This document shows, one piece after another, positions 17,176 through 49,425 of a stretch of 64,000 nt of DNA. The notes beneath the pieces are model-generated. The model made no database searches and had not been told where the DNA came from. It saw nothing but the letters and a program-made list of their open reading frames with translations. Where the stretch lies: NCBI GenBank assembly GCA_028718565.1, contig JAQULO010000002.1, positions 7,521 to 71,520 on the forward strand. Direction: 5' to 3'. Origin of the DNA: Syntrophales bacterium (GTDB lineage: Bacteria > Desulfobacterota > Syntrophia > Syntrophales > UBA2210). The stretch's first letter is position 1; the number at the start of each line of letters is the position of its first letter. Position numbers and translations under genes: made by a program.

Positions 17176-18714
17176 CTATTCATTCTTCCGTGACATGATA
17201 AAGAAAGGGGCGTGATTCGATGTAAACACCGTGGGGTCTCTTCGCACGATCGACTGGATTGCGGGATTCCTTCTGAACTCGCCGTCCAGAAACCGCCTCA
17301 CCTGCCCGCGGTTCCACCCCTCGGGGTGACGGAACTGTCGGTAGAGGGTCAGGTCGCCGGCATAAAAGTCTTCCGTATCCAGCTTTGCTGCGTCCGGGCC
17401 GTAGGCGGGCATGTTGAATATGGCGAGATTCAGGTAATCGATATATTCTCGGTGCCGTATAACATAATTGAGGGTATTTTGCGCCCCTCCGAGCGTCTCG
17501 GCGGGGGTCCCGAACAGAAGGTAGATGTAGGTGCCTATCCCGGCGTCCTTGAGATTCTTCAACGCCGCGGATGCCTCCGCCAAGTCGATCCCCTTGTCGA
17601 GGGCGTCAAGGACTCCCTGATCCCCCGACTCCAATCCGATCTTCAGCATGACACACCCCGAACGTTTCAGGCCTCTGCAAAAGCCGGGGTCGGTGAGGTG
17701 CCGGGTTATCCTGGCGAATCCGTACCAGGGAACGCCGGGGGGGCTGTCCGCTATCGTCGCAAGAAGCACCGGACTCATAGCGTTGTCGAGAAAGTGTATC
17801 AGAGCAGGCCCGTTGCTGTCGATAAGGGTGCCGATATCGGAGAGCGTCTCGTGGACCGGAGGGTGGGAATAGACACTCCCCTCGGCCTTCTCCGGGCAGA
17901 AGGTGCACCGGCCCCAGTAGCAGCCGCTCGACGCGCTGTAGGGGAGGACAAACCCCGGTGACAGGTAGGGGGTCTCGTGGAAAGGGGCGTAGTCCGGCAT
18001 GATGTGCCCGTTCGAAGGGGAGATGCCGAACATGCCGAGGAGGGGTGCCTCTCCCGGCCCCGCGATCATATCGTCGACAAGCCCGTCGAAGGGACTCTTC
18101 CAGTCTGGACTGCTGAGCCACGATGTCACCAGACCTCCCCCTAGGACGAGCCTCGCGTCCGGGCAGAGTTTCCGTATCAGGCCGATCAGGGAGAAGGCAG
18201 GGAGGGCCTGACTCAGATAGTTCAGTGAAAGCCCGACGACGGAGGGCTCCTCATCCGCGAAGAGTGCCCTCAGCCGCTCTGTAAAGTAGGGATAAAAGGG
18301 ACTCTTCTCCGGCTTTTCGGACGCCCCGATGAGATCGGAACTCCTGAGGGGTGAGAGGGCCCCGTCCTGGTAGTTTGCGAGGCCGAGCTGCACGCCGCGG
18401 GGGTGCGCCGCCAGATCGAGGACGCGGTTTATCTCCTTCACCGCCTGGGTATAACGGCCCGTATGCCTGTAAATATCCCGGTGCAGGAGCGCCGAGAGGT
18501 TCGCATGCAGGTGCCTCAGCGCCCGCCGGGACCACGTGTCATCGGACCCGGAGGGACACTCCAGTAGACTCATCAGGCCTTCGAGATTGGCATCCAGCAC
18601 GCGGCAGTGAACGCCGTGCCCCTTCAGCGTCCCCAGGAGCCTTGCAATCCCCGCGGGCGGCTCGCAGGGCCGTACGACGGGGGGGTTAATCAGAAACATA
18701 GTGCCGGATTCCAC
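17176..18714 (-). CDS. B12-binding-domain-like radical SAM protein
   Basis: Has an N-terminal Rossmann-like region and the cluster motif GCYWGRCTFC (C-x4-C-x2-C spacing, seen directly). The start may be the MFLINPP ATG at 18699. Confidence 0.75.
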   Translation of the reverse strand: MESGTMFLINPPVVRPCEPPAGIARLLGTLKGHGVHCRVLDANLEGLMSLLECPSGSDDTWSRRALRHLHANLSALLHRDIYRHTGRYTQAVKEINRVLDLAAHPRGVQLGLANYQDGALSPLRSSDLIGASEKPEKSPFYPYFTERLRALFADEEPSVVGLSLNYLSQALPAFSLIGLIRKLCPDARLVLGGGLVTSWLSSPDWKSPFDGLVDDMIAGPGEAPLLGMFGISPSNGHIMPDYAPFHETPYLSPGFVLPYSASSGCYWGRCTFCPEKAEGSVYSHPPVHETLSDIGTLIDSNGPALIHFLDNAMSPVLLATIADSPPGVPWYGFARITRHLTDPGFCRGLKRSGCVMLKIGLESGDQGVLDALDKGIDLAEASAALKNLKDAGIGTYIYLLFGTPAETLGGAQNTLNYVIRHREYIDYLNLAIFNMPAYGPDAAKLDTEDFYAGDLTLYRQFRHPEGWNRGQVRRFLDGEFRRNPAIQSIVRRDPTVFTSNHAPFFIMSRKNE

Positions 18715-19853: not shown

Positions 19854-20567
19854 TCATCCGAATATCTGCATCAATGGGTCATAGAAGGCTGGCGGCGGAC
19901 TTGAAAAGTCGTCGATTCGGCCGATAACTCCGGCGACTTTCACGCCAGAGGCATCTTCAACGGCCGCTCTGTTTTCGTCAATCATTTCAGCCGGGGTTTC
20001 GTTTTTTCCTGCATCGATGAAGACAACCCCGGAGGGAACAAATCCCCTGAGCTTCAGCGCCTCAATCGTAAGCAATGTGTGGTTGATCGTTCCCAGCCCG
20101 GCCCGTGCGGCTACAATGGGCTGTGCTTTTGTCAGCGATATCAGGTCGGCAACGGATCTATTCCCATCTACAGGGGCAAAGAGACCGCCCGCTCCTTCGA
20201 TAATCAGGGGGGTGTAGGTCGCGGCTTTCTCCTTCGCAATTTGTTCTATTGTCCCAAGGTCTATTGTTTTGCCTTCATCACGGGCGGCAAAGAGCGGCGC
20301 CTTGGGATTTTTGAAACAGTAGATGACCGAATCGGCGGGATTTTTGTCCCGTAGATTCTCCACACTGCGGTAAATGAAACGCGCGTCGCTCTCCATATCG
20401 TATGGATCCCTGCACCCTGTTTGCAAGGGCTTCAGGTAAAATGGATTATAACCTCTTGCAAAAAAGAAGTTCATCAACAGAAGGGAAAGCACGGTTTTTC
20501 CCACACCCGTATCTGTGCCGACGACGAATATAACGTTCTTACTCTTATTCAAGACTGCCATAAACAT
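19854..20567 (-). CDS. bioD: dethiobiotin synthase
   Basis: Contains the P-loop GTDTGVGKT and lies in a bio operon context. It overlaps the bioF stop. Confidence 0.9.
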   Translation of the reverse strand: MFMAVLNKSKNVIFVVGTDTGVGKTVLSLLLMNFFFARGYNPFYLKPLQTGCRDPYDMESDARFIYRSVENLRDKNPADSVIYCFKNPKAPLFAARDEGKTIDLGTIEQIAKEKAATYTPLIIEGAGGLFAPVDGNRSVADLISLTKAQPIVAARAGLGTINHTLLTIEALKLRGFVPSGVVFIDAGKNETPAEMIDENRAAVEDASGVKVAGVIGRIDDFSSPPPAFYDPLMQIFG

Positions 20568-21690
20568 CCTTCAGGTGTTCGATAAACAGATTGACATCTC
20601 CTTTTTCATGAAGCGCGGTGAGCCCTATCCTCAATATGGCTTGATGCCTGGGCACCGTCGGATAACGGGCTGGCATGACGAAGATCTTTTTCTCGAGAAG
20701 GAGCTGGGCCAACGTTGCCGCTTTCGCCTCTTCCCCTATTTCCAGGGCCAGGATGTGGGCATCACCGGAAACCCGGAATCCTTCGCGGATGAGGCATTCT
20801 TTCATAAATGCACTGATTGCTCCGAGCTTAATTCGCCTCTCTTCGCTTGAGGCGATCATGTCCAGCAGCAGCATGGCCGTGGCGGCATGCGCTTCAGGCA
20901 GTGCTGTTGTATACATGAGGGGCGATGCAAAGTTGAATAGGTATTCCTTGAATCCGCGGGGGAGCAGTACGAAAGCGCCAAAGAGGCCGAATGCCTTTCC
21001 AAAGGTGCCTACGGCGATATCGGCGACCGAACTGGCAATACCGCGGCCTCCGATACCCAATGCCCCGAAGGCATGCGCTTCGTCAACAATCGTCAGAAAA
21101 CTATAGCGTTCTTTCAGGTCGCTCAAACCGGACACATCCAGCAGATCTCCGTCCATGCTGAAGAGAGACTCCGTCAGGACGGCAGCCTGGTTGTCTCTGT
21201 GCGCGTCCAGCCGCTTTTCGAGATGGGTCAGGGAGTTGTGGTTGTAGCCGTAGAAATCGGCCCCGCTCATGACCATCCCCTTCACACTGCTCGCGTGTAC
21301 GTGCTTGTCAAAAATGGCCGTATCACCCTTATCGAGGAAGGTGGAAATGACAGCCATGTTGGCCTGGTAGCCGCTCGGGAAAAAAATGGCGTCATCGTAT
21401 CCGAAATACGCGGCATACGCCCTTTCCGCCTCGTTTATGACAGTGTAGTTCCCCGAAGCCAGCCTGGATGACGAGGAGGAGGTCCCATACCTCCGGAAAT
21501 TGGCGGCCGTCATGTGCCGCAACTCCGTGGAAGTACCCAGCCCGAGATAGTCGTTAGAGGCAAAGTTCAGCACCCTCTCGCCGCCGACAAGAAGGTGACT
21601 TCCCTCCCTTCCCCCAACCTCCGGCGGGTTGCGGTAGAGGCCCGCCTGATGCTGTAGCCTCAATCGGGCTGTGTATCGTTCAGCAAACAT
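20545..21690 (-). CDS. bioF: 8-amino-7-oxononanoate synthase
   Basis: An alpha-oxoamine synthase fold with the PLP lysine region TFGKAFG and SNDYLGL near the N-terminus. Confidence 0.9.
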   Translation of the reverse strand: MFAERYTARLRLQHQAGLYRNPPEVGGREGSHLLVGGERVLNFASNDYLGLGTSTELRHMTAANFRRYGTSSSSSRLASGNYTVINEAERAYAAYFGYDDAIFFPSGYQANMAVISTFLDKGDTAIFDKHVHASSVKGMVMSGADFYGYNHNSLTHLEKRLDAHRDNQAAVLTESLFSMDGDLLDVSGLSDLKERYSFLTIVDEAHAFGALGIGGRGIASSVADIAVGTFGKAFGLFGAFVLLPRGFKEYLFNFASPLMYTTALPEAHAATAMLLLDMIASSEERRIKLGAISAFMKECLIREGFRVSGDAHILALEIGEEAKAATLAQLLLEKKIFVMPARYPTVPRHQAILRIGLTALHEKGDVNLFIEHLKDVYGSLE

Positions 21691-22133
21691 AAAAATTTTT
21701 TCTCGTAATGACCACGCAAAGTTTCTCTTTCAAATTGTTGACCGTAGTCAGAGGCTGCGTAGAAAAATTCACCTTCGATAACGGGATCTGTGTTTTTCTC
21801 GGCCTTGAGCCCGCAACAAAAGGCCGACTTGCTCCGGCTCAGGAGGTTACCGGATAAAATGAATTCCCCATCTAAAGGCTTCCCCGGGGGAATGCGGCAA
21901 ATGCCTATCTTCAGGAGGAATATGTGCCTCTCAAAACCTGTCAGGTGGCGGATATGAAAGGCCCCCAACTGGGCAAGCGCCTCCAGCCCCATATAGACAG
22001 GGGTGCCGCAAAAAACCCGGATAGCCCCGATTTTCGTCGCACTTACACCCGTGATGGTGTCCAGCATGACAAAGGTGTCAAGCCCGGTATGAATCTCGAT
22101 CTCCGTCTCGGCCATTGTTCCGTTCAACCCCAT
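21660..22133 (-). CDS. hotdog-fold (FabA/FabZ-like) protein lacking the obvious catalytic His motif
   Basis: The ORF 21660..22265 was trimmed to MGLNGT (22133). The central helix EALAQLGAFHI resembles the FabZ EAxAQ helix, but no GHFP motif is present. Confidence 0.5.
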   Translation of the reverse strand: MGLNGTMAETEIEIHTGLDTFVMLDTITGVSATKIGAIRVFCGTPVYMGLEALAQLGAFHIRHLTGFERHIFLLKIGICRIPPGKPLDGEFILSGNLLSRSKSAFCCGLKAEKNTDPVIEGEFFYAASDYGQQFERETLRGHYEKKFLCLLNDTQPD

Positions 22134-22144
22134 TTCCGAGAACC

Positions 22145-23353
22145 TCAATATACGCTCTTTACAACAAGGGCGCTGTTCTGTCCGCCGAATCCGAAGTTTT
22201 CGATGACCGCCGTGCCGAACGGGGCAGACATCCCGCTCCTGACAAATTTGACCTCTCCGTGACAAGGTTCGTCAAGATTTCTGATCTCGGGGAGGTATCC
22301 GTCCCGCATGCAGGCAAGTGTTATGGCAAGCTCCAGCGCGCCGCATGCGGAAGCTGCATGGCCAATCCACGACTTCAGTGCAATTACAGAGGGTTGCGCC
22401 TTCCCATATATCTCAAAAATGATATTAGCTTCCATTTCATCATTGAGCACGGTTCCCGTACCGTGCGCGGATACGGCGTCTATCTGCGATGGAGAGACCT
22501 CAGCCTCTTTCAGCGCCGCATTCATGGCGTCCTTCGCGCTCCGCCCGCTTTTTTCGGGAGCCGTCATGTTATGCGCGTCGAGCGAGCACCCGTAGCCGCA
22601 CAGCTCTGCGTAAATTTCCGACCCCTGTTTCTTTGCCTGTTCTAACTCCTCAAGGAGGAAGAAGGCCCCTCCCTCACCCGGCACAAATCCATTCCGGCCG
22701 CAGTCGAACGGCCTGCTTGCCTTTTCAGGTTTGCCGCTACCAATGCACAGCGCCTTCGCTTTTTTGTATGCCAGGATACCGCCGGAGCTGAGCCGGGAAT
22801 CTCCTCCCCCGGCCAGGGCGCAATTCAGGTAGCCATCCTTTATCTTCCGGTAAGCCTCCCCGATGGCCTGCAGCGATGAAGAGCAGGCGGTCGACACGGT
22901 AAGGTTTTCCCCGTGGATTCCTATGAGCTGGGAGATGACGGATGCTGCCGTATTTGGCAGAAATTTCAGGATCCACAGCGCCTGGAGGTCATTACGGTCA
23001 ATGTTTCCTTTGGTGACCTCCGGAAATTCTCCGCCGATGTCAAGGTTTGGTCCCGCGCCGACAAAGAGACCGGCCCTTGCAAAACTTTCTTTTAAAGACC
23101 CTGAATTCCGCACCGCATCGATAGCGGAGGCGACGGAAAATTGCGCCCCCCGGTTCAAATAGCGGCCGTCCTTAAAGGGCCCCGTATAGGACCTGATATT
23201 GAAGTTTCTGACCGGAGCGACAACAACTTCCCCGTCAGACGCCTGCCTCTCAAAGGCGACTTTCCTTCCTTTCAGACTCATTATGATTTCATCCGGTGTG
23301 CAACCGAGAGAGGAAACAACCCCTATGGATGTAATGACGACCCTTCGTTTCAT
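22145..23353 (-). CDS. beta-ketoacyl-ACP synthase I/II-type (FabF/FabB-like)
   Basis: Has the active-site Cys in STACSSS, His residues in DAHNMTAP and SAHGTGT, and a C-terminal GFGGQNSALV. Confidence 0.9.
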   Translation of the reverse strand: MKRRVVITSIGVVSSLGCTPDEIIMSLKGRKVAFERQASDGEVVVAPVRNFNIRSYTGPFKDGRYLNRGAQFSVASAIDAVRNSGSLKESFARAGLFVGAGPNLDIGGEFPEVTKGNIDRNDLQALWILKFLPNTAASVISQLIGIHGENLTVSTACSSSLQAIGEAYRKIKDGYLNCALAGGGDSRLSSGGILAYKKAKALCIGSGKPEKASRPFDCGRNGFVPGEGGAFFLLEELEQAKKQGSEIYAELCGYGCSLDAHNMTAPEKSGRSAKDAMNAALKEAEVSPSQIDAVSAHGTGTVLNDEMEANIIFEIYGKAQPSVIALKSWIGHAASACGALELAITLACMRDGYLPEIRNLDEPCHGEVKFVRSGMSAPFGTAVIENFGFGGQNSALVVKSVY

Positions 23354-23995
23354 TCAGACTTCCCGGTAAATTTCTGCCAATTCTTTCCGGCTGATAAATG
23401 CCGGCTTTTCGGCAGGATACCCTGTTGTGATGAAGCACCTGACACTGGTCCCATCCAGAGAAAGACTCTTTTCCGGCTCATCTATGAAAATGAGCGGCGC
23501 CGTGAGGATACAGGAACCAAGACCAAGCTCTTCTCCCTTCAGGAGGTATCCCATCAGGGCAAGTCCGACGGAGATATCGAGGTCTCTGTGCCTTTCATCG
23601 CGCCTCCCGCAGTACCCCGGGTCGGGCAGGCTTTCCGTCAGACTGGGGACCTCCATCGTAGTCCCTACGGCAAAAAGCGCCGGGGCATCAAACATAAACT
23701 CTGAAAAGCGGTAAGAGACGTTGACCCGGTTCCTCAATTTTTTTGGACTGTCTGAGTCTGTGACGGTGGTAAGCAGCCTTTCCCGTCCAAGGAGCATGGC
23801 CTCGCGAAGAGCGGCTTTAGCCCCGGATGAGATGACACGGATGAAACGCACCGGTTGCCTGTTTGATGGAGATGGTGCTTTTATTGCTGCGGAGATCATC
23901 TTCAGCAGGCATTCCTCCGGCGGGGGCGTGTCGGTATATTTCCGAACGCTTCTCCTTGCGTCGATCAGCCTGTCAAGAGTCGTCATTACCTGCAT
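23354..23995 (-). CDS. nitroreductase-family FMN flavoprotein
   Basis: N-terminal RRSVRKY and APSPSNRQP motifs. It abuts the KAS start with zero gap and overlaps the ACP stop. Confidence 0.8.
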   Translation of the reverse strand: MQVMTTLDRLIDARRSVRKYTDTPPPEECLLKMISAAIKAPSPSNRQPVRFIRVISSGAKAALREAMLLGRERLLTTVTDSDSPKKLRNRVNVSYRFSEFMFDAPALFAVGTTMEVPSLTESLPDPGYCGRRDERHRDLDISVGLALMGYLLKGEELGLGSCILTAPLIFIDEPEKSLSLDGTSVRCFITTGYPAEKPAFISRKELAEIYREV

Positions 23996-24368
23996 GCCGC
24001 GCCCTTTCCAGCTGATACGTTACATAGTCCACCAGGTCCCTTATCTTGAGCTGGGGGCCTTCCACGGTCCGGGCAGCAATCTCCTTGATCCTGTCTTTTG
24101 TAAGGAAAGGGTACTTCTCCGCAATATACGGAACGGTGTCCGCCATCTGCTGCTCTGCCTCCGACATGTAATGTCTGAAGCACCCGAGAAAAATATCATC
24201 GTCTTTTACCGGAATCTTGAATCGATTGTTTATAGCGACCGCCAGTTCTAACAGATCAATCGATTCCGCGCCCAGATCCTTGATCAGGTACGTATCCGGA
24301 GTTATATCGCTGTCCTCCAGGTCAAGGAGTTCCGCAAGTATTTTCTCTATTTCCGCAAATATATTCAT
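23973..24368 (-). CDS. acyl carrier protein with about 50-aa C-terminal extension
   Basis: Has the phosphopantetheine-site context DLGAESIDLLELA. It is 131 aa, versus about 80 aa for canonical ACP. Confidence 0.8.
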   Translation of the reverse strand: MNIFAEIEKILAELLDLEDSDITPDTYLIKDLGAESIDLLELAVAINNRFKIPVKDDDIFLGCFRHYMSEAEQQMADTVPYIAEKYPFLTKDRIKEIAARTVEGPQLKIRDLVDYVTYQLERARHAGNDDS

Positions 24369-24426
24369 GTAGTCCTTGCCTTTGCTGCTGTCAGAACACC
24401 TTTAAAAATCAAATCTTTTGCGCCTT

Positions 24427-25221
24427 TCATTTTCCGGATGTGAGTCCGCCGTCCATGGTCACCACCGTGCCGTTGATGCCGTCTCCCCCATCGGAGAGGA
24501 GAAAAAGTATCGTATGCGCTATCTGTTCGCGGGTTATCGCTCTATTGGTCGGAACCTTATCAAGCACCGCCTTGCCTTTCCTCCTGATATACGCGGCGCC
24601 TCTCCCCGCGTTGACATAGCCGGGTCGAAGGATTGCCACAGTGATACCTCGTCCAGCCATTTCCAGCCCCATATTGAGGTACAGCGCCTCTGAGGCACGT
24701 TTCGCCGCCGCATAGAATCCCTGTCCCGGATTGGGCCTCTCTGCCGCGGTTGAGGAAATATAGATGAGTCTTCCCTTTCTTTTTTTTAGCATTGCCCGCC
24801 CGGCTCGCTTCAATATCCATGCCCGGAAGGAAACATTCTCCGTAAAGTAACGACAGGTCATATCCTCATCAGCCGACGCAACGAGGCTCTCATAATCGTC
24901 ATTAACAAAATCTATCAAGACGTCTAAATCTTCAGCGATATCAGTGAAGAGGGTATCAAGCGTTTCCCGTTCTCCGAAGTTCAGATAATGGCTCTCGAAT
25001 CTCCCGGCGAATGGCAGCATGGATTCAGATATCGCCTGAAGTCCCCTGTCGCTCCTGTAGGTAAGAATAGGATAGAGGGAAGCTTCGATCATGGATTGCG
25101 CCAGGGTCAGGGCGAGTTCGCAGCTCCCTCCCAGGATCAGGGCGCGTTTACCCGTAAATGTTCCTTTCAAATTTTCATGACTCCCGTTACCAGTTTTTTG
25201 TCCCCGCGACTTATAGAGCAC
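24427..25221 (-). CDS. short-chain dehydrogenase/reductase (FabG-like ketoreductase)
   Basis: SDR fold with the S...YaaaK catalytic region (SSTAAERPNPGQGFYAAAKRA). It has an atypical Gly motif, LILGGSCELA. The start is uncertain. Confidence 0.8.
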   Translation of the reverse strand: MLYKSRGQKTGNGSHENLKGTFTGKRALILGGSCELALTLAQSMIEASLYPILTYRSDRGLQAISESMLPFAGRFESHYLNFGERETLDTLFTDIAEDLDVLIDFVNDDYESLVASADEDMTCRYFTENVSFRAWILKRAGRAMLKKRKGRLIYISSTAAERPNPGQGFYAAAKRASEALYLNMGLEMAGRGITVAILRPGYVNAGRGAAYIRRKGKAVLDKVPTNRAITREQIAHTILFLLSDGGDGINGTVVTMDGGLTSGK

Positions 25222-25529
25222 AGGATACGGTTTTCCCCGAATTCCATCCTGAACGGATAACGGCCTGGCTTGAGAAATTCCCGGAATCTGACATTCTCTA
25301 TCGAGAGAACATCTCCCTTGATCTCGGCCTCCCTGACGGCCGTAAGAAATGCGTGGACAATCAGACTTCCCGGGACGACCGGGTATCCCGGAAAATGTTC
25401 CCGGTAGATGCCGTCTCCGGGATCAAAGTGAAACACCCCTTCCAGGACATCTTCAGTGTTCACAGCGTTCTCAGAGGCGACCATAGTCTGCGGCCTCCGT
25501 GATGACCCGGATCGACTCATATGTCGCAT
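25167..25529 (-). CDS. short FabZ-like 3-hydroxyacyl-ACP dehydratase
   Basis: Contains EHFPGYPVVPGSLIVHAF (compare the FabZ GHFPxxPVMPGVL motif). The likely start is MVASEN at 25484, and it overlaps the bioA stop. Confidence 0.75.
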   Translation of the reverse strand: MRHMSRSGSSRRPQTMVASENAVNTEDVLEGVFHFDPGDGIYREHFPGYPVVPGSLIVHAFLTAVREAEIKGDVLSIENVRFREFLKPGRYPFRMEFGENRILCSISRGDKKLVTGVMKI

Positions 25530-26859
25530 CGCAGATTTGATCCATTTCCTGTAGGGAGATGGCGAGCGGAGGCATCAGTACAACGACATCACCCAGAGGC
25601 CGGATAATGACCCCTCGCTTTCGCGCCTCCGTGATGACCCGGTGACCAGTCCGTTTTTCCGGAGTGAAGGGTTCTTTTGTTTCCCGGTTTGCGACAAGCT
25701 CTATCCCGACCATGAACCCGCATTGGCGGACGTCACCGACATGCGCAAGAGACGTGAAGGGCTCCAACTTTTTCGTGAAATGGGCGATTTTTGCCTGGAG
25801 ATTTTCTATGGTGCGTTCCTTCTCAAAGACCTCCAGGTTGGCGATGGCGACCGCGCAGGCCAGCGCGTTTCCCGTATAGGTGTGCCCATGAAAGAACGTC
25901 TTGAATTCTTCGTACTCTCCCAGAAAACCTTCGTAGATTTTCTCGCTTGCAAGCGTGGCGGCAAGCGGCAGATATCCTCCCGTGATCCCTTTGGCGACAG
26001 CCATGATATCCGGTGAGACACCCTCGTGCTGACAGGCAAACATCTTTCCGGTTCTTCCGAATCCGACGGCGACTTCATCGGCGATCATAAAGACACCAAA
26101 GCGTGTGCAGAGCTCACGCACTCTTTTTAGATACCCTGGCGGCTGGACGAGTATTCCCCCGGCTCCCTGAACTATGGGTTCGACGATCAGGGCGGCAGCC
26201 TCGTGGTGATGTTTTGCCATGGCATCCTCCATATCGCTCAGACATTCCATGCCACAGGAAGGATATGACTTTTCAAAAGCGCAACGATAGCAGTAGGGAG
26301 AGGTTACCTTAATGGTTTTGAACAAAAGTTCTTTGTACATGGAGTGAAAGAGGTCGATGCCGCCAACACTTACGGAACCTATTGTATCCCCATGATAGGC
26401 ATTGGACAGGTGAATGAATTTTTGCTTGTTCGGATCTCCTCCCGGTGCTTGCCGGTGGTACTGAAAGGCTATCTTCAAAGCTATTTCAACTGCCGTGGAG
26501 CCGCTGTCGGAATAGAAAACCCTGGTCAAACCTTCCGGAGCTATTTCAATAAGGCTTTTTGCCAGCCTGATTGCGGGAACACCGGAAAGTCCCAGCAATG
26601 TGGAGTGAGCTAACTTCCCTACCTGGTCTACAAGGGCGCGATCCAGGGCCTCTTTTCTGTGTCCGTGGATGTTGGTCCATAGCGAGGAAACAGCGTCGAT
26701 ATACCGATTCCCATCGACATCTATCAGAATGCATCCTTCTCCCTGCTCAATTATCGGTGGCTTTTCATCTACATAGCCGCGCATTTGGGTAAAAGGATGC
26801 CAAAGGTACTTCCCGTCAACTTCCGCCAGGTCTTTATACTCTTGTCCGCATTCCGTCAT
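25471..26859 (-). CDS. bioA: adenosylmethionine-8-amino-7-oxononanoate aminotransferase
   Basis: A class III aminotransferase with LWHPFTQM and DEVAVGFGRTGK motifs, in a bio context. Confidence 0.92.
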   Translation of the reverse strand: MTECGQEYKDLAEVDGKYLWHPFTQMRGYVDEKPPIIEQGEGCILIDVDGNRYIDAVSSLWTNIHGHRKEALDRALVDQVGKLAHSTLLGLSGVPAIRLAKSLIEIAPEGLTRVFYSDSGSTAVEIALKIAFQYHRQAPGGDPNKQKFIHLSNAYHGDTIGSVSVGGIDLFHSMYKELLFKTIKVTSPYCYRCAFEKSYPSCGMECLSDMEDAMAKHHHEAAALIVEPIVQGAGGILVQPPGYLKRVRELCTRFGVFMIADEVAVGFGRTGKMFACQHEGVSPDIMAVAKGITGGYLPLAATLASEKIYEGFLGEYEEFKTFFHGHTYTGNALACAVAIANLEVFEKERTIENLQAKIAHFTKKLEPFTSLAHVGDVRQCGFMVGIELVANRETKEPFTPEKRTGHRVITEARKRGVIIRPLGDVVVLMPPLAISLQEMDQICDATYESIRVITEAADYGRL

Positions 26860-26874
26860 TTTTCGCTATTCCTT

Positions 26875-27858
26875 TTACTTGTTGAGCGGGGAAACGTCAC
26901 CGGAGATTATCCTCCTGAGCATCCCCTCCTGATCCCTCATGATCAAAAATCCATCTTCATTGATGTCCTGAAAAATGCCCGTATAGGTGGTATCGATGAC
27001 ATCGACGCTGATTTTTGTTCCGATCATTTTTGTGAGTTGTTTCCATCGTTTCATGATCGGGTCGAACCCGTGCGTTTTGAAGGTCTTGTTATATTCTTCC
27101 AGAAGCTCCAGGCAGGTTCGCAGGATGACCGCTCTGGAAAAAAATCTTCCCGTTTCAATGAACAGAGAGGTGGCCTTGTCCCTGATGTCGGACGGAAGAC
27201 TTTCCCGGGTAGTGTTCACATTTATACCCACACCGATAACAACGTGATAGACCCTGTCCATTTCGGCTTTCATTTCAGTGAGAATTCCGGCCACCTTCCT
27301 TCCCCCGATCAGGACGTCGTTCGGCCATTTGATGGATGCATTTACAGGCGCGCAGGCAAGAATAGCCTCCGCTACTGCGACGGAGGCCATCAGCGTCAGT
27401 TTTGGGGCCTCGTTGGGGGAAATCTGCGGACGTAAAATGAAGGAGGCGCAGATTCCTTCCCCGGTCGGAGAAAACCACGATCTCCCCCTTCTACCTCTTC
27501 CCCGTGTCTGCCATTCTGCTACAACGACAGTGCCTTCAGGCGCCCCTTCATTTGCTAAATGTTCAGCCTGAAGATTAGTGGAATCCGTATCGCTAAAATG
27601 GAAAATGCGGCTCTTTCCGAAGACGCTGGTCTTCAGACCCTCTTTGACCTCGTTTTCGAGGAGACAGTCGGGGCTCCCCCGCAAGACATATCCTTTTTTC
27701 CGAGATGATTCTATTATGTAGCCATCTTTTTTCAGCGCGCCAATGTGCTTCCAGATGGCCGTCCGGGAAATCGTCAGCCTCCGCCCCAGGAACTCACCGG
27801 AGAGCCAGGTCCCTTTTTCTTCTTTCAGGCATGCTAGGAGTATTTCTTTTGTAGACAT
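26875..27858 (-). CDS. birA: bifunctional biotin-[acetyl-CoA-carboxylase] ligase / bio operon repressor
   Basis: Has an N-terminal wHTH (ISRTAIWKHIGALKKDGYIIES) and a GRGRRGRSW biotin-binding loop. The start was set to the ATG at 27858 (the ORF track uses the TTG at 27894, inside the operator). Confidence 0.92.
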   Translation of the reverse strand: MSTKEILLACLKEEKGTWLSGEFLGRRLTISRTAIWKHIGALKKDGYIIESSRKKGYVLRGSPDCLLENEVKEGLKTSVFGKSRIFHFSDTDSTNLQAEHLANEGAPEGTVVVAEWQTRGRGRRGRSWFSPTGEGICASFILRPQISPNEAPKLTLMASVAVAEAILACAPVNASIKWPNDVLIGGRKVAGILTEMKAEMDRVYHVVIGVGINVNTTRESLPSDIRDKATSLFIETGRFFSRAVILRTCLELLEEYNKTFKTHGFDPIMKRWKQLTKMIGTKISVDVIDTTYTGIFQDINEDGFLIMRDQEGMLRRIISGDVSPLNK

Positions 27859-27880: not shown

Positions 27881-27919
27881 TTGACATATGTCAACTAGAA
27901 CTTTAATTATGGTTGACAT
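27881..27919. promoter_or_regulatory. candidate BirA operator in the birA/bioB divergent promoter region
   Basis: ATGTCAAC (27888..27895), a 16-nt spacer, then GTTGACAT (27912..27919) form a perfect inverted repeat. An extra abutting half-site TTGACAT lies at 27881..27887. The layout resembles the 40-bp bioO type of site. Confidence 0.65.
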
Positions 27920-27997
27920 ACATATCCTTCTCTGTTATGCAGCCCCGGTGGTTGCCGGGTATTTGATATGAATAATCGCCGGCAAAGGAGGAGAAAT

Positions 27998-28981
27998 ATG
28001 ATCAGCGCAAATATCGCCGGAATTGCCGAGAAGATTTTACGTGAGGGTGAAAATGTCCTGTCTTTCGACGATGTCCGCGCGCTTGCCCATCTTCCTGAAG
28101 AAAACACCATAGATCTCCTGTACTGCGCGCATAGAATCAGGAAACACTATAAGAACGAACTCATTATCTGTTCCATTATCAATGCAAAGTCTGGACTCTG
28201 CACCGAGGACTGTGCATTTTGTTCGCAGTCGTCACATCACTCAACGGGAATAGACATATACCCCTTGCTGGACAAGGAAGAAATCGTCAGCCGGGCTCAT
28301 GACATGAAGAAAGCGGGCGCGACGAGATTCTCCATGGTAACAAGCGGAGTTATGCTCACGGATAAAGAGCTGAACACCGTCTGCAGTGCTGCGGAAACCA
28401 TCGCCAGGGAAACGAAGGTCACGGTATGCGGTTCTCTGGGCATGCTCGACGAATCCATGGCTGTCCGTCTCAGAAAAGGGGGCCTTTCCGTGTATCATCA
28501 CAATCTGGAAACCGCCCGGAGCCATTTCGATAGAGTATGTACCACCCACTCATATGATGAAGACATACAGACGGTAAAAAGCGCCGGGGCGACCGGCATG
28601 AGGGTGTGTTCGGGAGGTATTCTGGGCCTGGGTGAAAACTGGGAACAGCGCATGGAGCTTGCCTTCACCCTCAGGGAGCTTGACGTGGACGGGATTCCCC
28701 TGAATTTTCTGAACCCAATTCCAGGGACGCGCATGGAGGCCATGCCCCTGCTTTCACCCATGGAAGCACTGAGATGTATAGCCCTCTTCAGGCTGGTCAA
28801 CCCATCGAAGGATATCATTATTTGCGGCGGCAGGGAGGTGACGCTCAGGGATTATCAATCTTGGATATTTTTTGCCGGTGCCAATGGTCTCATGATCGGC
28901 AATTATCTGACAACGCAGGGACGAAATATCCAGATGGATATCGATATGCTGAAACAGAGCGGGACAGAATACCTCAGCTAA
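27998..28981 (+). CDS. bioB: biotin synthase
   Basis: Contains the radical SAM motif CTEDCAFCSQS. The start was set to the ATG at 27998, which is preceded by AAAGGAGGAG. Confidence 0.93.
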   Translation: MISANIAGIAEKILREGENVLSFDDVRALAHLPEENTIDLLYCAHRIRKHYKNELIICSIINAKSGLCTEDCAFCSQSSHHSTGIDIYPLLDKEEIVSRAHDMKKAGATRFSMVTSGVMLTDKELNTVCSAAETIARETKVTVCGSLGMLDESMAVRLRKGGLSVYHHNLETARSHFDRVCTTHSYDEDIQTVKSAGATGMRVCSGGILGLGENWEQRMELAFTLRELDVDGIPLNFLNPIPGTRMEAMPLLSPMEALRCIALFRLVNPSKDIIICGGREVTLRDYQSWIFFAGANGLMIGNYLTTQGRNIQMDIDMLKQSGTEYLS

Positions 28982-28990: not shown

Positions 28991-29716
28991 TTAAATATGC
29001 ATGACCCCTCTCGCCTTCCGGAGGTTTTTCCAGAAGGGCTTGTATAGGAAACTCTCTTCGCCCAGGCCGCAGAGCTGTTCGTACATCGGCCGAGTGACCG
29101 TAAAGGCGAGCAGCTCCGGGTCCAGATACCGGCGCATCGCGATATCCGTTGCGCCGATAATCGCCTGGGCGACGCCCAGGTCATCAAAGGGGGCGACCAG
29201 TTGGGAGCACCCCGACCCGAATGGCGCGATCACCGGGGCAGGATCGCCCGGCGCGCTGTAATACTGGGCGCCCGTCATGAGCAGGCCCATCTGATCGGGG
29301 TTGACAAAGAAGGTCACGCTCCTGAGATACTCATACTGATCCGCGCGTAGCGGACCGATGAGGATGTGGGGGTTTTTCTGGTCATACCCGGCACGGTAAT
29401 CCAGCCACTGGTTCATCGGGGCGTGCGATGCCTTCAGTCCCTCGTCATTCACGAGGAAGCTGACCATGTCCTCCCTCGACCGCGTTTCCGCGCCGCACAG
29501 CCAGTGACCGGCCCCACCGCAGCCGAAGTTCTCTTTCGTCAGGTGCAGAGTCTTTCCGCGAAGCCACTGCCGGTAGAAGGCGAACACACATGCCCGGGTG
29601 CCTGGTTTCGGTTTCACCAGCGGCTCGAACGGATGGATGTCGGGCGCGTCGTAGAACCCTATCAGAGGTATCTCCAGGCCGGCCTTCTCAAGCAGGTTTG
29701 TCGCATCAGGTTGCAT
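28991..29716 (-). CDS. DUF169-like protein of unknown function
   Basis: A 241-aa protein with GCGGAGHW and GSGCSQ motifs. The family call is from memory and tentative. Confidence 0.5.
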   Translation of the reverse strand: MQPDATNLLEKAGLEIPLIGFYDAPDIHPFEPLVKPKPGTRACVFAFYRQWLRGKTLHLTKENFGCGGAGHWLCGAETRSREDMVSFLVNDEGLKASHAPMNQWLDYRAGYDQKNPHILIGPLRADQYEYLRSVTFFVNPDQMGLLMTGAQYYSAPGDPAPVIAPFGSGCSQLVAPFDDLGVAQAIIGATDIAMRRYLDPELLAFTVTRPMYEQLCGLGEESFLYKPFWKNLRKARGVMHI

Positions 29717-30072: not shown

Positions 30073-32145
30073 ATGGTGGACAACGAGACAACAGATATGA
30101 CGCTCTTCGTCAGGACGTCGGAAGCGGATATTACCGGCTGGGACAGGCGAAAGATCGTTGATGCCCTGATCCGGGAGGCCGGTGTGGACCTTGATACGGC
30201 GGAGGAGATAAGCCGGGAGGTGGCGGATCGGATCGCCTCATCGGGGATCGATATCCTTACCGCATCGCTGATACGAGAACTGGTGGATTCACGGCTGATC
30301 GAGCGGGGAATGAAGGAGGCGACGAAACTACATGCCCGCCTGGGGTTTCCTCTCTATGACGTGGGCCAGCTTATCCTGTACCGTAACAAGGAGAATGCCA
30401 ATATCCCCCACAGCCCCGAGGGGACAAACCTGACCCTGGCCCAGGGGATCAAGAAGGAATTCGCCATCCTCAATGTCTTCTCGGAGGATGTCGGGTATGC
30501 CCACATGGGGGGGGACATCCATATCCACAACCTGGGGTATGTGGACAGACCCTACTGCTCCTGTCAGTCTCTCGAATATATAAAGAAATTCGGGCTGAAT
30601 CTCCCCAATTCCCTTGCCGTCGCGGTGCCCGCAATGCACGCGGAGGTGCTGTTGTCGCACATGGTGAGATTTGCCGCCGCCCTTCAGGGTAACTTTGCCG
30701 GGGCCATCGGATGGGACGCCGTCAACCTCTTTTTCGCCCCCTATCTGGAGGAACTGACCGATCGGGAGGTCATGCAACTGGCGCAGAGGCTGATCTATGA
30801 ATTCGCCCAGCAGGCCGTTGGTAGAGGAGGGCAGACGATCTTTACCGATATACACCTCTACTGGGATGTCCCCCGGTATTTCAAGGACGTTCCCGCCATA
30901 GGCCCTGGGGGGGAGTATACGGGCAAGACTTACGGGGAGTACGAGAAGGATGCACAGCGGTTTGCCAGAGCCCTCTTCAAGGTACTCGGGAAGGGGGACG
31001 CTGCGGGGCGTCCCTTTGTCTTCCCCCGGCCCTTTGTGCATATAACGGAGAAGTTTTTCCGGGTTCCTGGTCACGAGGAGTTTCTGGATGCCGTTTGTAA
31101 TGTGGCCGCTGATAAGGGGAGTCCCCACTTTATCTTCGACAGAGATAACACCCTCAATATGTCCGAATGCTGCAACCTGGACATGAACGGCGCGGAAGAG
31201 ATGGTCGATGCGCGCGAGCCGTGGAAGATGCGTTATTTCGGCATCCAGAACGTGTCGATAAACCTCCCCCGACTGGGGTATAAGGCAGGGGGGGATGACA
31301 AGCGACTTTTTTCAATGATTGCCGATATCATGAGCCTTGCCGCGAAGGCCCACTTGCAGAAGCGGGACTTTATCGAAGGCCTTTTGTCGCACGGCGGTGA
31401 GGGCCCGTTATCCCTCCTGACCATGGGGTATGACGGTATGCCGTACCTGAGGATGAACCGGTCCGTATACCTTATGGGGATAATTGGCCTCAACGAACTG
31501 GTATGGGCGCATATGGGGCGTCAGCTCCATGAGGCGGAGATCCCCCGCGAGTTCGGGCGGGGCGTTGTCCGGTACATGAAAGAGGTCGCCGATACCCTGA
31601 CGAAGGCGCACGGCATACGATTTATCCTTCAGCAATCACCGGCGGAGAGTACCCCCTACCGCCTGGCACGGCTGGACCTGAAACATTTCTCTCCGACGGC
31701 GGGACATTTTGTGCGGGGCGACATATCGAAGGGAACTGTATATTATACCAACTCGACACTTCTCGCGGCATCATCGTCCATTGATCCTTTCGAGAGAGCG
31801 GCCTTTGAAGGTGCTATCCACCCCTTCATGGAGGGGCATGCCGCGACCTGTATATGGCTGGGTGACACGCGACCTGACCCGAAGGGCCTGGCCGGGTTTG
31901 TCAGGAAAGTCTTCATGGAGACCGAAAACCGGCATGTGGTATTCTCGCCCGAGTTCACCACCTGCCTGGAGTGCAACACGACGTCCAGGGGCATCACGGA
32001 CTCGTGCCCCTTGTGCGGTTCGGGTAATGTGGAGGGGATTGCCCGGGGCGCGGGATATTTTTCCCGGATGTCGAACTGGAACAAGGGAAAACTGGCGGAA
32101 CTGAGGGACCGCAAGAATCAGGGGGGCGCCTTCGGCGGGGTTTAG
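30073..32145 (+). CDS. nrdD: anaerobic ribonucleoside-triphosphate reductase (class III)
   Basis: Has an N-terminal ATP-cone, a C-terminal Zn site CLECN...CPLCG, and the glycyl-radical region IARGAGYFSR. Confidence 0.92.
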   Translation: MVDNETTDMTLFVRTSEADITGWDRRKIVDALIREAGVDLDTAEEISREVADRIASSGIDILTASLIRELVDSRLIERGMKEATKLHARLGFPLYDVGQLILYRNKENANIPHSPEGTNLTLAQGIKKEFAILNVFSEDVGYAHMGGDIHIHNLGYVDRPYCSCQSLEYIKKFGLNLPNSLAVAVPAMHAEVLLSHMVRFAAALQGNFAGAIGWDAVNLFFAPYLEELTDREVMQLAQRLIYEFAQQAVGRGGQTIFTDIHLYWDVPRYFKDVPAIGPGGEYTGKTYGEYEKDAQRFARALFKVLGKGDAAGRPFVFPRPFVHITEKFFRVPGHEEFLDAVCNVAADKGSPHFIFDRDNTLNMSECCNLDMNGAEEMVDAREPWKMRYFGIQNVSINLPRLGYKAGGDDKRLFSMIADIMSLAAKAHLQKRDFIEGLLSHGGEGPLSLLTMGYDGMPYLRMNRSVYLMGIIGLNELVWAHMGRQLHEAEIPREFGRGVVRYMKEVADTLTKAHGIRFILQQSPAESTPYRLARLDLKHFSPTAGHFVRGDISKGTVYYTNSTLLAASSSIDPFERAAFEGAIHPFMEGHAATCIWLGDTRPDPKGLAGFVRKVFMETENRHVVFSPEFTTCLECNTTSRGITDSCPLCGSGNVEGIARGAGYFSRMSNWNKGKLAELRDRKNQGGAFGGV

Positions 32146-32404: not shown

Positions 32405-34108
32405 GTGGAACTGAGCGGGGCTCAAATATTAATACGATCATTTATGGAAGAGGGGGTCGATACCATTTTTGGATATCCCGGCGGCTCCGTTCTCGATATC
32501 TATGATGAACTGTACAAATCTTCAATCAAGCATATCCTGGTCCGTCACGAACAGGGCGCGGCCCACGCGGCCGATGGATATGCCCGGGCATCGGGGAAGG
32601 TGGGGGTGTGTCTCGTGACCTCGGGTCCCGGTGCTACCAACACGGTAACGGGTATAGCCACGGCGTACATGGACTCGATACCGATGGTCATTGTGACGGG
32701 ACAGGTTCAGACCCCCTTTATTGGGACAGATGCCTTTCAGGAGGCGGACATAACAGGGATTACGCGCCCATGCACGAAACACAATTTTCTGGTCAGGCGT
32801 GTCGATGAGCTGGCCAATACGGTGCGGGAGGCGTTCTATATTGCCCGTTCAGGCCGCCCCGGCCCCGTTCTCATCGATCTCCCAAAGGATATAATGCAGG
32901 CCAAAGCCGAGTACAGGGAGATGACCTCTCTCCGTCCGGGGGTCGCGGAACCGGTCTATCTGCCCGATGCCGGGCAACTCACCGAAACCCTTGACCTGAT
33001 CAAGAAGGCCAAGAAACCTGTTCTCCTCATTGGGGGGGGCATTATCCACGGCCGGGCGAGTGCCGAGCTAGTGGAATTTGCCCGTAAGGTCAACATGCCC
33101 GTTACCTCGACCCTCATGGGGCTTGGGGCCTTTCCCGGCACCGATCCCCTATGGATGGGTATGCTCGGAATGCACGGCACCTACTACGCGAATATGGCCA
33201 TCAGCAACTGTGACCTCCTTATCACTGTGGGGGTGCGGTTTTCCGATCGCGTGACCGGCAGGCTTGCCACTTTTGCCTCGAACGCCACCATCGTGCAGAT
33301 CGATATCGATGCCGCCTCGATAAACAAAAACGTTCTCGTTCATATACCGATTGTCAGCGACTGCAAAACAGCACTGAACCAGTTGAACGCCATGCTGGAC
33401 AGGAACGGGCTTGAGGCGATCAGGGAAGGGCACAGGGATTGGCTCGCCCAGATCGAGGGATGGAGAACCGAGGGGCCCATGGCCTACTGCCAGGGTGATA
33501 AGATCAAACCGCAGTGTGTCATCGAGACGCTTTATGCACTTACGAAGGGGAACGCCATCGTGGCGACCGAGGTGGGACAGAACCAGATGTGGACAGCACA
33601 GTTCTTCCGGTTCAATGAGCCGAACACCTTTCTCACCTCGGGGGGTCTCGGGACAATGGGCTACGGATTGCCTGCCGCCATCGGTGCCCAGGTTGCCTTT
33701 CCCGGCAGACTGGTCGTGGATATCGCCGGAGACGGGAGCATCCAGATGAATATCCAGGAACTTGCCACGGCTGTTAACTATAAACTCCCCGTGAAGGTGG
33801 TGATTCTCAATAACGGCTATCTCGGGATGGTACGTCAGTGGCAGGAGCTTTTCTATGATAAGCGGTACTCCAGCACTGACATCCGTGGCCAGTCTCCCGA
33901 TTTCGTAAAGCTTGCCGAGGCCTACGGGGCTCTAGGCCTGAGGGCCACGAAGCCGGAAGATGTGGCGGCGACTCTCACCCGGGGACTGGAGGCACCCGGA
34001 CCGGTGGTTATGGACTTTGTGGTTGAAGGCGAAGAGGGAGTCTATCCCATGGTGAATCCCGGAGCATCGCTGACGGATATGAAGTTGAGCGGCGGTATAG
34101 GAATGTAA
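32405..34108 (+). CDS. ilvB: acetolactate synthase large subunit (biosynthetic)
   Basis: A ThDP enzyme with the N-terminus GAQILIRSFMEEGVDTIFGYPGG and a GDGSIQMNIQEL ThDP motif. GTG start with a GAGGAGG SD. Confidence 0.93.
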   Translation: MELSGAQILIRSFMEEGVDTIFGYPGGSVLDIYDELYKSSIKHILVRHEQGAAHAADGYARASGKVGVCLVTSGPGATNTVTGIATAYMDSIPMVIVTGQVQTPFIGTDAFQEADITGITRPCTKHNFLVRRVDELANTVREAFYIARSGRPGPVLIDLPKDIMQAKAEYREMTSLRPGVAEPVYLPDAGQLTETLDLIKKAKKPVLLIGGGIIHGRASAELVEFARKVNMPVTSTLMGLGAFPGTDPLWMGMLGMHGTYYANMAISNCDLLITVGVRFSDRVTGRLATFASNATIVQIDIDAASINKNVLVHIPIVSDCKTALNQLNAMLDRNGLEAIREGHRDWLAQIEGWRTEGPMAYCQGDKIKPQCVIETLYALTKGNAIVATEVGQNQMWTAQFFRFNEPNTFLTSGGLGTMGYGLPAAIGAQVAFPGRLVVDIAGDGSIQMNIQELATAVNYKLPVKVVILNNGYLGMVRQWQELFYDKRYSSTDIRGQSPDFVKLAEAYGALGLRATKPEDVAATLTRGLEAPGPVVMDFVVEGEEGVYPMVNPGASLTDMKLSGGIGM

Positions 34109-34185
34109 AAAGGTTACTCTTCGAGGGGGGTTCCCTTCGGTCAGCAACCCCTTGGTACTATAACAGGAGAAAGGATTATGAAGTC

Positions 34186-34650
34186 ATGGAGGTAAAAGAG
34201 CATACGATTTCACTTCTGGTGCACAACAAGCCGGATGTGCTTGCAAGAATCGCCGGGACGTTCAGTGGGCGAGCGTACAATATTGAGAACATCAGCGCCA
34301 ACGTAACGCTGGACCCCAAGATTACGAAGATAACCATCGCCACTGTCGGGAATACGGCGACCATCACCCAGATTGAAAAGCAGCTCAAGAAACTGGTGGA
34401 TGTTATCGATGTGTCCCATGTAAGGACCATGTCCTCGATTCAGAGGGAGATGATCCTTGTCCGCGTGGAGGCCGACCGGGAGGGGGTTATGAAGGCCGTC
34501 GATGAGCTCGGCTGCCGGGTTCTGAAGGAAGGACCTGATTGCTTCATCCTCGAGCTGACTGGGGACAAGAAAGAGGTGGATCAGGCGTTGACCTATCTAG
34601 AGACCCTTGGTATTAAAAACATGAGCAGATCCGGAATGGTCGTCTTATAA
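34186..34650 (+). CDS. ilvN: acetolactate synthase small (regulatory) subunit
   Basis: Has an ACT domain, HTISLLVHNKPDVLARIAGTFSGRAYNIENI. Confidence 0.92.
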   Translation: MEVKEHTISLLVHNKPDVLARIAGTFSGRAYNIENISANVTLDPKITKITIATVGNTATITQIEKQLKKLVDVIDVSHVRTMSSIQREMILVRVEADREGVMKAVDELGCRVLKEGPDCFILELTGDKKEVDQALTYLETLGIKNMSRSGMVVL

Positions 34651-34676
34651 TTTAATGGTATATGAGGAGAAAAGAA

Positions 34677-35732: not shown

Positions 35733-35767
35733 CGACGAGGAACGATTTGGAAGAGAAGGGGGAGAGC

Positions 35768-44393: not shown

Positions 44394-44413
44394 TATTGAC
44401 GGTCCCGCACAAC

Positions 44414-44851: not shown

Positions 44852-44899
44852 CGATCAAGTTGTTTCGGCATTCGCCCTCCGGTCCGAATCCGGCTCGGC

Positions 44900-45529: not shown

Positions 45530-45544
45530 AACAATAAATCCTTT

Positions 45545-46480: not shown

Positions 46481-46486
46481 TGTGCA

Positions 46487-47107: not shown

Positions 47108-47135
47108 AACCCGCTCCTATCATTTTACGGTTCGA

Positions 47136-49424: not shown

Positions 49425-49425
49425 C

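Follow-up and report, generated by a model that had tools for sequence, protein, structure and literature searches.

A stretch of 64,000 nucleotides (nt) from an uncultured Syntrophales bacterium (GenBank assembly GCA_028718565.1, contig JAQULO010000002.1, positions 7,521 to 71,520 of the forward strand; hereafter the window) carries a biotin operon with six additional genes between bioA and bioF. These encode two hotdog proteins (HD1 and HD2), a short-chain dehydrogenase/reductase (SDR), an acyl carrier protein (ACP), a nitroreductase-family protein (NTR) and a ketoacyl synthase (KAS). We consider it probable, at roughly 0.8, that the six genes form a BirA-repressed, self-contained type II mini fatty-acid synthase which makes pimeloyl-ACP for BioF. 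Based on its architecture and on comparison with the genetics of Desulfovibrio vulgaris (Trotter et al., 2023), the assignment of the module as another member of the Desulfovibrio-type biotin pathway is well supported. What is new here would be a split dehydratase, an analogy between the NTR and the FbiB reductase, an extended ACP and a set of KAS gate residues, all of them suggested by the protein sequences.

A biotin operon with a conserved six-gene insert

Ten tightly packed genes form one minus-strand operon, which runs from 27858 down to 19854 in the order birA-bioA-(hotdog1-SDR-ACP-nitroreductase-KAS-hotdog2)-bioF-bioD, with bioB divergent. Families were assigned by Pfam and NCBIfam profile scans. 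The span 21660-25529 gives the outer limits of the open reading frames (ORFs) of the six inner genes and not the predicted product ends. The features are as follows:

birA, 26875..27858, minus strand: biotin ligase/repressor with a helix-turn-helix domain (HTH_11, BPL_LplA_LipB, BPL_C; TIGR00121 213.9 bits), first operon gene
bioA, 25471..26859, minus strand: adenosylmethionine-8-amino-7-oxononanoate transaminase (TIGR00508 555.6 bits, cut-off 405)
hotdog1 (HD1), 25167..25484 (ORF 25167-25529), minus strand: 105 amino acids (aa), minimal FabZ/ApeI-like protein (PF07977 FabA-like, E=1.2e-5)
SDR, 24427..25170 (ORF 24427-25221), minus strand: FabG-like (adh_short_C2, 1.4e-23)
ACP, 23973..24368, minus strand: 131 aa (PP-binding, 9e-11)
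nitroreductase (NTR), 23354..23995, minus strand: 213 aa (PF00881, 3.7e-22, 79.7 bits)
KAS, 22145..23353, minus strand: N- and C-terminal ketoacyl-synt domains, distantly FabF-like
hotdog2 (HD2), 21660..22133 (ORF 21660-22265), minus strand: about 157 aa, predicted FabZ fold, no sequence-family match
bioF, 20545..21690, minus strand: 8-amino-7-oxononanoate synthase (TIGR00858 best match, 317.8 bits, below the cut-off of 426)
bioD, 19854..20567, minus strand: dethiobiotin synthase (TIGR00347 132.2 bits, cut-off 83.3), last operon gene
bioB, 27968..28981, plus strand: biotin synthase, divergent from the operon (TIGR00433 396.5 bits, cut-off 225)
Predicted BirA operator, 27889..27918: TGTCAACt-N14-gGTTGACA, a perfect inverted repeat between birA and bioB

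For HD1, SDR and HD2, the products seem to be shorter than the ORFs, to judge by the start-codon context and by where the alignments of orthologues begin. The likely start of HD1 is ATG 25484, preceded by GGAGG, and that of the SDR is TTG 25170, in a TTGA overlap with the HD1 stop. HD2 likely starts at ATG 22133 or 22115, which gives about 151-157 aa. A 58-nt gap separates the SDR and ACP genes, whereas all other junctions overlap, abut or leave 11-15 nt. The overlaps amount to 14 nt for bioA/hotdog1, 14-23 nt for ACP/nitroreductase, 31 nt for hotdog2/bioF and 17-23 nt for bioF/bioD, while the nitroreductase and KAS genes abut and KAS and hotdog2 are 11 nt apart. An earlier note on this DNA, made from the letters alone, had described a fatty-acid-synthase-like six-gene module on one strand between bioA and bioF, and the ORFs, the profile scans and a structure model of HD2 confirm this description. 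The same note had counted the complete late pathway together with birA. This stands for bioA, bioD, bioB and the ligase domain of birA, all of which exceed the NCBIfam equivalog cut-offs; for bioF the synthase model is the best match yet stays below its cut-off.

Pfam scans of 51 ORFs (50 of at least 150 aa and one of 85 aa; these include 40 further ORFs of at least 150 aa and the 85-aa one across the window) revealed no BioC, BioH, BioW, BioI (P450), BioZ (FabH-like) or BioE-like (ferritin-like) protein in the 64-kb window, which is the scope of this result rather than the genome. The statement of the earlier note that the window has none of the known genes for the pimelate moiety is borne out by these scans.

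The operator pattern between birA and bioB occurs once in the window, where 0.02 matches would be expected by chance, and it overlaps a sigma-70-like promoter for bioB (TTGACA-18-AATTAT, 27881-27910). Its form is that of the delta-proteobacterial BirA sites (Rodionov et al., 2004; PMC545781). The window contains the TGTCAAC/GTTGACA form and not the canonical BirA site of the E. coli type, TTGTAAACC...GGTTTACAA. The adjacent operator suggests that the cluster may be under BirA control. Although the birA ORF runs up to TTG 27894, this codon lies inside the operator, and ATG 27858 is therefore the likelier start. The operator of the TGTCAAC/GTTGACA type is widely shared across phyla: among the at least 120 listed matches (L205-L324) to the BirA-site pattern of D. 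vulgaris and G20, TTGTAAACC-N15-MGTTGACAR, roughly half adjoin bioB, bioF, bioA or birA, in many phyla.

For the analysis of related loci, a motif scan was performed with one genome per GTDB species. It returned 270 relatives, the best 80 of which were taken, and together with a first scan this resulted in 81 loci with a KAS at least 50% identical to that of the window. The closest relatives of the KAS come from metagenome-assembled genomes (MAGs) of Syntrophales/Syntrophaceae, with identities of up to 79% and mostly 55-72%. HD2 and then bioF follow directly downstream of KAS in 62 of the 64 loci with enough flank, and 56 of 64 have HD1, SDR and ACP upstream of it. In 65 of 70 loci the ACP and KAS genes flank that for the NTR, and the window NTR is 41-66% identical to the nitroreductases of these 65; three metagenome contigs carry a 48%-identical homologue from the protein database in the same cluster. 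Among the sampled Syntrophales and Desulfobacterales loci, a nitroreductase gene inside the cluster is thus the commonest arrangement. A neighbourhood survey, as proposed in the earlier note, ties the module to biotin: at least one bio gene is present in 76 of the 81 loci, and the remaining ones are short contigs.

A five-gene module without the nitroreductase gene is present in L045, L056, L066, L070, L128 (Desulfoluna butyratoxydans) and L156 (D. limicola). In the first four, the ACP and KAS genes abut or are about 100 nt apart, leaving no room for such a gene. These loci match the arrangement in Desulfovibrio, where the nitroreductase is unlinked. In another locus (L067), about 6.4 kb are inserted between ACP and NTR. 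When the KAS motif PGEGGAFF was searched for as a GC-biased back-translation, the matches were unrelated Kiritimatiellia/Verrucomicrobia KAS genes and Desulfoluna, and Desulfovibrio was absent from them. A disguised ordinary type II fatty-acid synthase (FAS) locus was considered and rejected: KAS matches with 29-36% identity are ordinary FabF proteins without a bio gene cluster, and the family scores of the module proteins are far below the cut-offs.

A pathway of this type was predicted as a new route to pimeloyl from the genes for an ACP, a KAS, a ketoreductase (KR) and a dehydratase (DH) in Desulfovibrio bio operons (Rodionov et al., 2004; PMC545781). In D. vulgaris Hildenborough, randomly barcoded transposon sequencing (RB-TnSeq) identified nine clustered genes that are specifically needed in the absence of biotin: bioB/A/F/D, the FabZ-like DVU2560 and DORF42491, the KR DVU2561, the ACP DVU2562 and the KAS DVU2563 (Trotter et al., 2023; PMC10102598). 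Growth without biotin also depends on DVU1220, a nitroreductase encoded away from the cluster; the housekeeping ACP is a separate, essential protein, and neither bioC nor bioH is present (PMC10102598). Similar clusters occur in other Desulfobacterota and in Desulfurispirillum; a nitroreductase-like gene belongs to those of Syntrophobacter fumaroxidans and Desulfobacter vibrioformis, and between cluster nitroreductases the identity exceeds 40% (PMC10102598).

The window locus has the same parts as the Desulfovibrio-type cluster (DVU2558-DVU2565 with DORF42491, and DVU1220), that is two FabZ-like hotdog proteins, a FabG-like SDR, an ACP and a FabF-like KAS among bioB/A/F/D. Both have a BirA site, and no bioC or bioH was found in either, here within the 64-kb window. 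The in-cluster nitroreductase is of the same subtype as in S. fumaroxidans and D. vibrioformis. In contrast to the Desulfovibrio arrangement, where birA is divergent, birA heads the operon here; DVU1220 is unlinked and has an Fe-S domain, whereas the window NTR is encoded in the cluster and has none; and the host is an uncultured Syntrophales bacterium. Lin and Cronan (2011) are reportedly another source for the extended bio cluster of the Desulfovibrio type.

Two claims of the earlier note have to be given up in the light of this comparison. It had called the locus a richer version of the Desulfovibrio insert, with an extra flavoprotein and a second hotdog protein. D. vulgaris, however, has DORF42491 and needs DVU1220, and the in-cluster nitroreductase has been published. 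Since both components are already part of the known system, and the nitroreductase is found in most of the related loci, the window locus is not richer. The note had also presented the pathway as an uncharacterised candidate, but it was predicted in 2004 and validated by genetics in 2023. Its remark that a biochemical resolution is lacking still appears to hold in the searched literature, in which we found no biochemical work on the Desulfovibrio-type pathway, including after 2023 (subscription-only journals were outside the coverage). A 2025 survey of the known pimelate routes does not include this pathway (PMC12704756), and a paper of December 2025 on the oxygen-dependent BioE route gives BioC/H, BioI/W and BioZ as the known routes.

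The central idea of the earlier note, a dedicated route to a C7 thioester on its own ACP for BioF, is supported by the synteny in about 80 species, the BirA operator and the D. vulgaris transposon genetics. The same observations bear on the alternative that the product of the module has nothing to do with biotin, being for instance a small polyketide or a lipid, and that the module was merely inserted in the bio operon. Nothing speaks for it beyond the absence of direct biochemistry, and it is very unlikely given that the position between bioA/bioB and bioF is conserved, that hotdog2 overlaps bioF in an operon with a BirA operator, and that the mutants of the D. vulgaris cluster show a biotin-specific phenotype.

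Predicted functions of the module proteins

The KAS carries the triad Cys157-His297-His332, which is invariant in six of six sequences and agrees with the elongating Cys-His-His enzyme recognized in the earlier note; this is the elongating, decarboxylating type. With 291 bits against the fabF model TIGR03150 (cut-off 493.75) and about 36% identity to FabF structures, its sequence places it in the same enzyme class as FabF but not among the FabF orthologues. Three invariant elements are specific to the family: GPN (101-103), GGGDSR (182-187) and Tyr196. In the alignment to the FabF structure, GPN lies opposite GSG-Ile108-G and GGGDSR opposite GGAE-x-x, with Pro102 and Tyr196 aligned to the gate residues Ile108 and Phe202. 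The 'back gate' that the latter two form in E. coli FabF sits next to the bound chain at about C7-C8 (PMC9006962). We infer from the alignment that Pro102/Asn103, Asp185-Ser186-Arg187 and Tyr196 may reshape the gate into a short polar pocket for the omega-carboxylate, and the invariant polar and basic residues of the pocket are candidates for binding this group and for limiting the chain length.

The residues Ser156/157, Tyr170 and Lys174 of the SDR, numbered along the 264-aa ORF, show conservation in 65 sequences. The protein reaches 90.5 bits against the FabG model TIGR01830 (cut-off 297.75), and none of its Pfam and NCBIfam matches attains a FabG equivalog cut-off. It is predicted to act as a 3-oxoacyl-ACP reductase for omega-carboxy substrates.

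Both hotdog proteins depart from FabZ in complementary ways. PF07977 matches HD1 in 32 of 32 orthologues, and in the alignment to FabZ structures HD1 retains the motif HFPGxPVVPG, the catalytic His of which is invariant in 63 of 63 sequences. The position of the catalytic Glu of FabZ is taken by His, Arg, Gln and other residues but never by Glu, and it is His in the window protein. Against the FabZ model HD1 scores 24.6 bits (cut-off 113). Of the 32 HD1 orthologues, 12 match the ApeI-like family PF22818, with E values of 0.019 or weaker that fall short of the cut-off; PKS_DH_N matches are also weak, and one homologue has a precomputed ApeI-like match.

HD2, in turn, had no match in searches of Pfam and NCBIfam or in a phmmer search of the PDB, and its profile-profile comparison with HD1 was not significant. 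Its AlphaFold model (predicted local distance difference test, pLDDT, 77.6) is a hotdog fold, the top Foldseek matches of which are all FabZ (E about 2e-6, template modelling scores 0.6-0.7). In addition, a profile of 35 HD2 orthologues aligned GxE(S/A)LAQ with LxEAxAQ of FabZ in a weak profile match. HD2 is assigned to the FabZ fold because of the model, the Foldseek result and this weak match taken together. All of 74 orthologues and 135 of 136 representatives have the Glu in question, E51, whereas the position equivalent to the His is Gly or Ala. The family is small, with 222 representatives among 1.84 billion proteins and the signature E..AQ....H.R.......H.FLL. Three further HD2 residues, His60, Arg62 and His70, are near-invariant (129-133 of the 136 representatives), are located on or after the central helix and are absent from FabZ. 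They are candidates for binding the omega-carboxylate and for limiting the chain length.

The active site of FabZ spans the dimer interface, with the His from one subunit and the Glu from the other. The complementary losses of His and Glu therefore lead to the prediction of an HD1:HD2 heterodimer with one complete site. The catalytic pair would be split, with the His on HD1 only and the Glu on HD2 only, and neither protein falls within FabZ itself, as no single polypeptide carries both residues. The requirement for both hotdog genes in D. vulgaris fits this prediction. ApeI/ApeP of aryl-polyene clusters, a dehydratase in which a heterodimer has one active site, provides a precedent (PMC8041823). 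In ApeI/ApeP and in the double-hotdog DH domains of polyketide synthases (PKS), two hotdog units share one site, with the His on the N-terminal or ApeI-like unit and the acidic residue on the other. The differences are that the HD1 matches lie below the cut-offs, that HD2 constitutes a small family by itself without a match to ApeP or PKS models, and that the association of HD1 with HD2 is a prediction.

The NTR carries the FMN (flavin mononucleotide) motif RRSVRKY and lies well above the gathering score of PF00881 (23.5 bits), from which FMN binding is predicted. Its best NCBIfam matches are the FbiB models, both the full-length one (NF009810, E=3.7e-13) and the C-terminal one (TIGR03553, E=5e-13), and for each of the two the score stays far under the cut-off. 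With 49.3 bits against TIGR03553 (cut-off 249.55) and as a stand-alone protein without a fused CofE-like ligase, it is not a member of the FbiB family. Among PDB structures, 3gfa (an uncharacterised putative nitroreductase) was the first match and 4xom (FbiB's C-terminal domain) the second. With FMNH2, the FbiB C-terminal domain reduces a C=C bond in conjugation with a carboxylate, which is held by an arginine (PMC6450877). By this analogy, the closest characterised relative of the NTR would be a C=C reductase, an activity that suits the missing enoyl reductase (ER), and we predict that the NTR is the enoyl-ACP reductase of the module. Both proteins share the FMN-binding nitroreductase fold, and the dehydro-F420-0 reductase likewise acts on a C=C bond conjugated to a carboxylate; unlike the FbiB domain, the NTR stands alone, and its proposed substrate is an enoyl-ACP thioester.

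Alternatively, a housekeeping FabI, FabK or FabV might reduce the enoyl intermediate while the NTR has an accessory role in reduced flavin or electron supply or in repair. We know of no nitroreductase-fold enoyl-ACP reductase, and the NTR gene is missing from the cluster in some loci, among them both Desulfoluna genomes. Furthermore, a promiscuous FAS enoyl reductase, DVU2064, is left open by Trotter et al. (2023; PMC10102598). Against this stand the specific need of D. vulgaris for its nitroreductase in biotin synthesis, the translational coupling of the NTR gene to the ACP and KAS genes and the kinship with the FbiB domain, a flavin-dependent C=C reductase that acts beside a carboxylate. Moreover, the other steps of the cycle all have dedicated paralogues, as would be expected if ordinary FAS enzymes reject free omega-carboxylates. 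An accessory NTR is hence rather unlikely.

The phosphopantetheine serine of the ACP is Ser36, within DLGAESIDLLEL (ESI motif), which aligns with the serine of AcpP. Only residues 1-58 can be aligned to known ACPs, and 40.3 bits against the AcpP model TIGR00517 (cut-off 70.45) leave the protein outside the AcpP type. The extension is conserved in about 150 homologues, almost all of which have a length of about 116-146 aa and most of 121-131 aa; among the listed homologues of comparable length none has the canonical length of about 78 aa. In the AlphaFold model (pLDDT 89), the four canonical helices are joined by three extra ones at 78-85, 91-99 and 109-126. No solved structure resembles the extension, as the PDB matches are no better than E=3e-3 and cover the ACP core only.

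The proposed cycle

From these assignments, the following cycle can be proposed. A housekeeping FabD or an equivalent enzyme would load malonate on the dedicated ACP, and the KAS would take this malonyl group as a non-decarboxylated primer together with a second malonyl-ACP to give 3-oxoglutaryl-ACP. The SDR would reduce the keto group, and the HD1:HD2 heterodimer would dehydrate the 3-hydroxy intermediate in its single composite site, with the His from HD1 and the Glu from HD2. The FMN-dependent protein of the nitroreductase fold would then convert the enoyl (glutaconyl) thioester to glutaryl-ACP, and a second cycle would yield pimeloyl-ACP, which would be passed to BioF.

A free omega-carboxylate is not accepted by ordinary FAS enzymes, hence the need of E. 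coli for BioC and BioH. As the omega-carboxylate would stay free throughout the proposed cycle, neither the methyl ester of BioC nor the esterase BioH would be needed, and every enzyme of the cycle would therefore be a dedicated, diverged paralogue. The BioC-BioH route likewise makes pimeloyl-ACP for BioF from malonyl units in two rounds of KAS, KR, DH and ER. E. coli, however, uses the methyl-ester disguise with the housekeeping FAS and AcpP, whereas the module has dedicated enzymes and its own ACP and no methyltransferase or esterase. BioZ of alpha-proteobacteria is likewise a dedicated ketosynthase for an acyl substrate with a free omega-carboxylate, glutaryl, on the way to pimeloyl-ACP. 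It is a FabH-type enzyme with a Cys-His-Asn triad that draws glutaryl-CoA from lysine catabolism and relies on the housekeeping FabG, FabZ, FabI and ACP. In contrast, the KAS of the window is of the FabF type, and the reductive enzymes and the ACP are all dedicated.

The BioZ logic suggests another way to pimeloyl-ACP, in which glutaryl is loaded on the ACP or the KAS and elongated in a single round. That such priming works is shown by BioZ, and the sequence does not dictate how many cycles take place. In the Syntrophales group, anaerobic benzoate metabolism passes through glutaryl-CoA and pimeloyl-CoA; the host is a Syntrophales relative, and glutaryl-CoA is abundant in the degraders of benzoate and cyclohexane carboxylate of this order. 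The Cys-His-His KAS of the FabF type, however, uses ACP-bound primers, whereas the Cys-His-Asn enzymes of the FabH/BioZ type take CoA primers, and the cluster has no acyltransferase or CoA transferase. In addition, Desulfovibrio and Desulfoluna have the same module and are not known to carry out such catabolism. Taking both sides into account, we regard glutaryl priming as distinctly unlikely and prefer two rounds from a malonyl primer.

Several points weigh against the proposed malonyl-primed synthase. Primer, cycle number and product thioester are all inferred, and the matches to FabZ, FabG, FabF, AcpP and FbiB are far below the cut-offs, so that the activities are predicted from fold and catalytic residues. 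No acyltransferase or phosphopantetheinyl transferase gene is present in the cluster. The NTR is missing from 5 of 70 loci and from both cultured Desulfoluna genomes, and the in-cluster nitroreductases are only distant relatives of DVU1220 (PMC10102598). Some MAG loci lack HD1 (L039, L042) or the SDR (L039, L047, L064), and in three split clusters (L029, L044, L088) KAS-HD2-bioF occurs without the upstream genes. These departing loci may be assembly artefacts or real variants; they imply either that helpers are encoded elsewhere or that the HD1:HD2 pairing is not obligatory.

The synthase for pimeloyl-ACP as such has to be distinguished from its most specific version. This is a free-dicarboxylate FAS cycle with an obligate split FabZ heterodimer, an enoyl-ACP reductase of the nitroreductase fold as a new class beside FabI/L/V and FabK, a seven-helix ACP, and a KAS with a non-decarboxylated malonyl primer and a 'back gate' ruler of Arg, Asn and Tyr. 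We put this combination forward tentatively, with somewhat less than an even chance of being right. Its parts (the split FabZ, the nitroreductase-fold ER, the seven-helix ACP and the KAS ruler) are neither stated nor tested in the searched literature.

Neighbouring genes and significance

Next to the biotin genes, a DUF169 gene (28991-29716, minus strand) is convergent with bioB, and a B12-binding radical SAM protein, weakly PhpK-like, is encoded downstream of bioD (17176-18714, minus strand). The gene nrdD for the anaerobic ribonucleotide reductase (30073-32145, plus strand) is followed by ilvB-ilvN-ilvC-ilvD (32405-37429, plus strand), which fits a strict anaerobe. Two cobalamin riboswitches are present on the minus strand at 57979-58153 and 60068-60240 (91 and 75 bits), upstream of a TonB-dependent receptor (55848-57950) and of an ABC transporter pair (58091-59967). 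Near them are genes for a CobO-type corrinoid adenosyltransferase (54960-55475) and a periplasmic binding protein (45818-46480) as well as ExbB/TonB genes, and the genes from 43731 to 59967 look like an island for corrinoid uptake and salvage.

The source of pimelate in anaerobes without BioC/H, BioW/I, BioZ or the oxygen-dependent BioE is a biochemically open branch of biotin synthesis. The question was already opened by the D. vulgaris genetics and not by the window locus, and it is the enzymology that remains. For this, the compact ten-gene operon under predicted BirA control offers a convenient template for reconstitution. If true, the predictions would account for the tolerance of a synthase towards a free omega-carboxylate and would provide an oxygen-independent pimelate route without a methyl ester for engineering.

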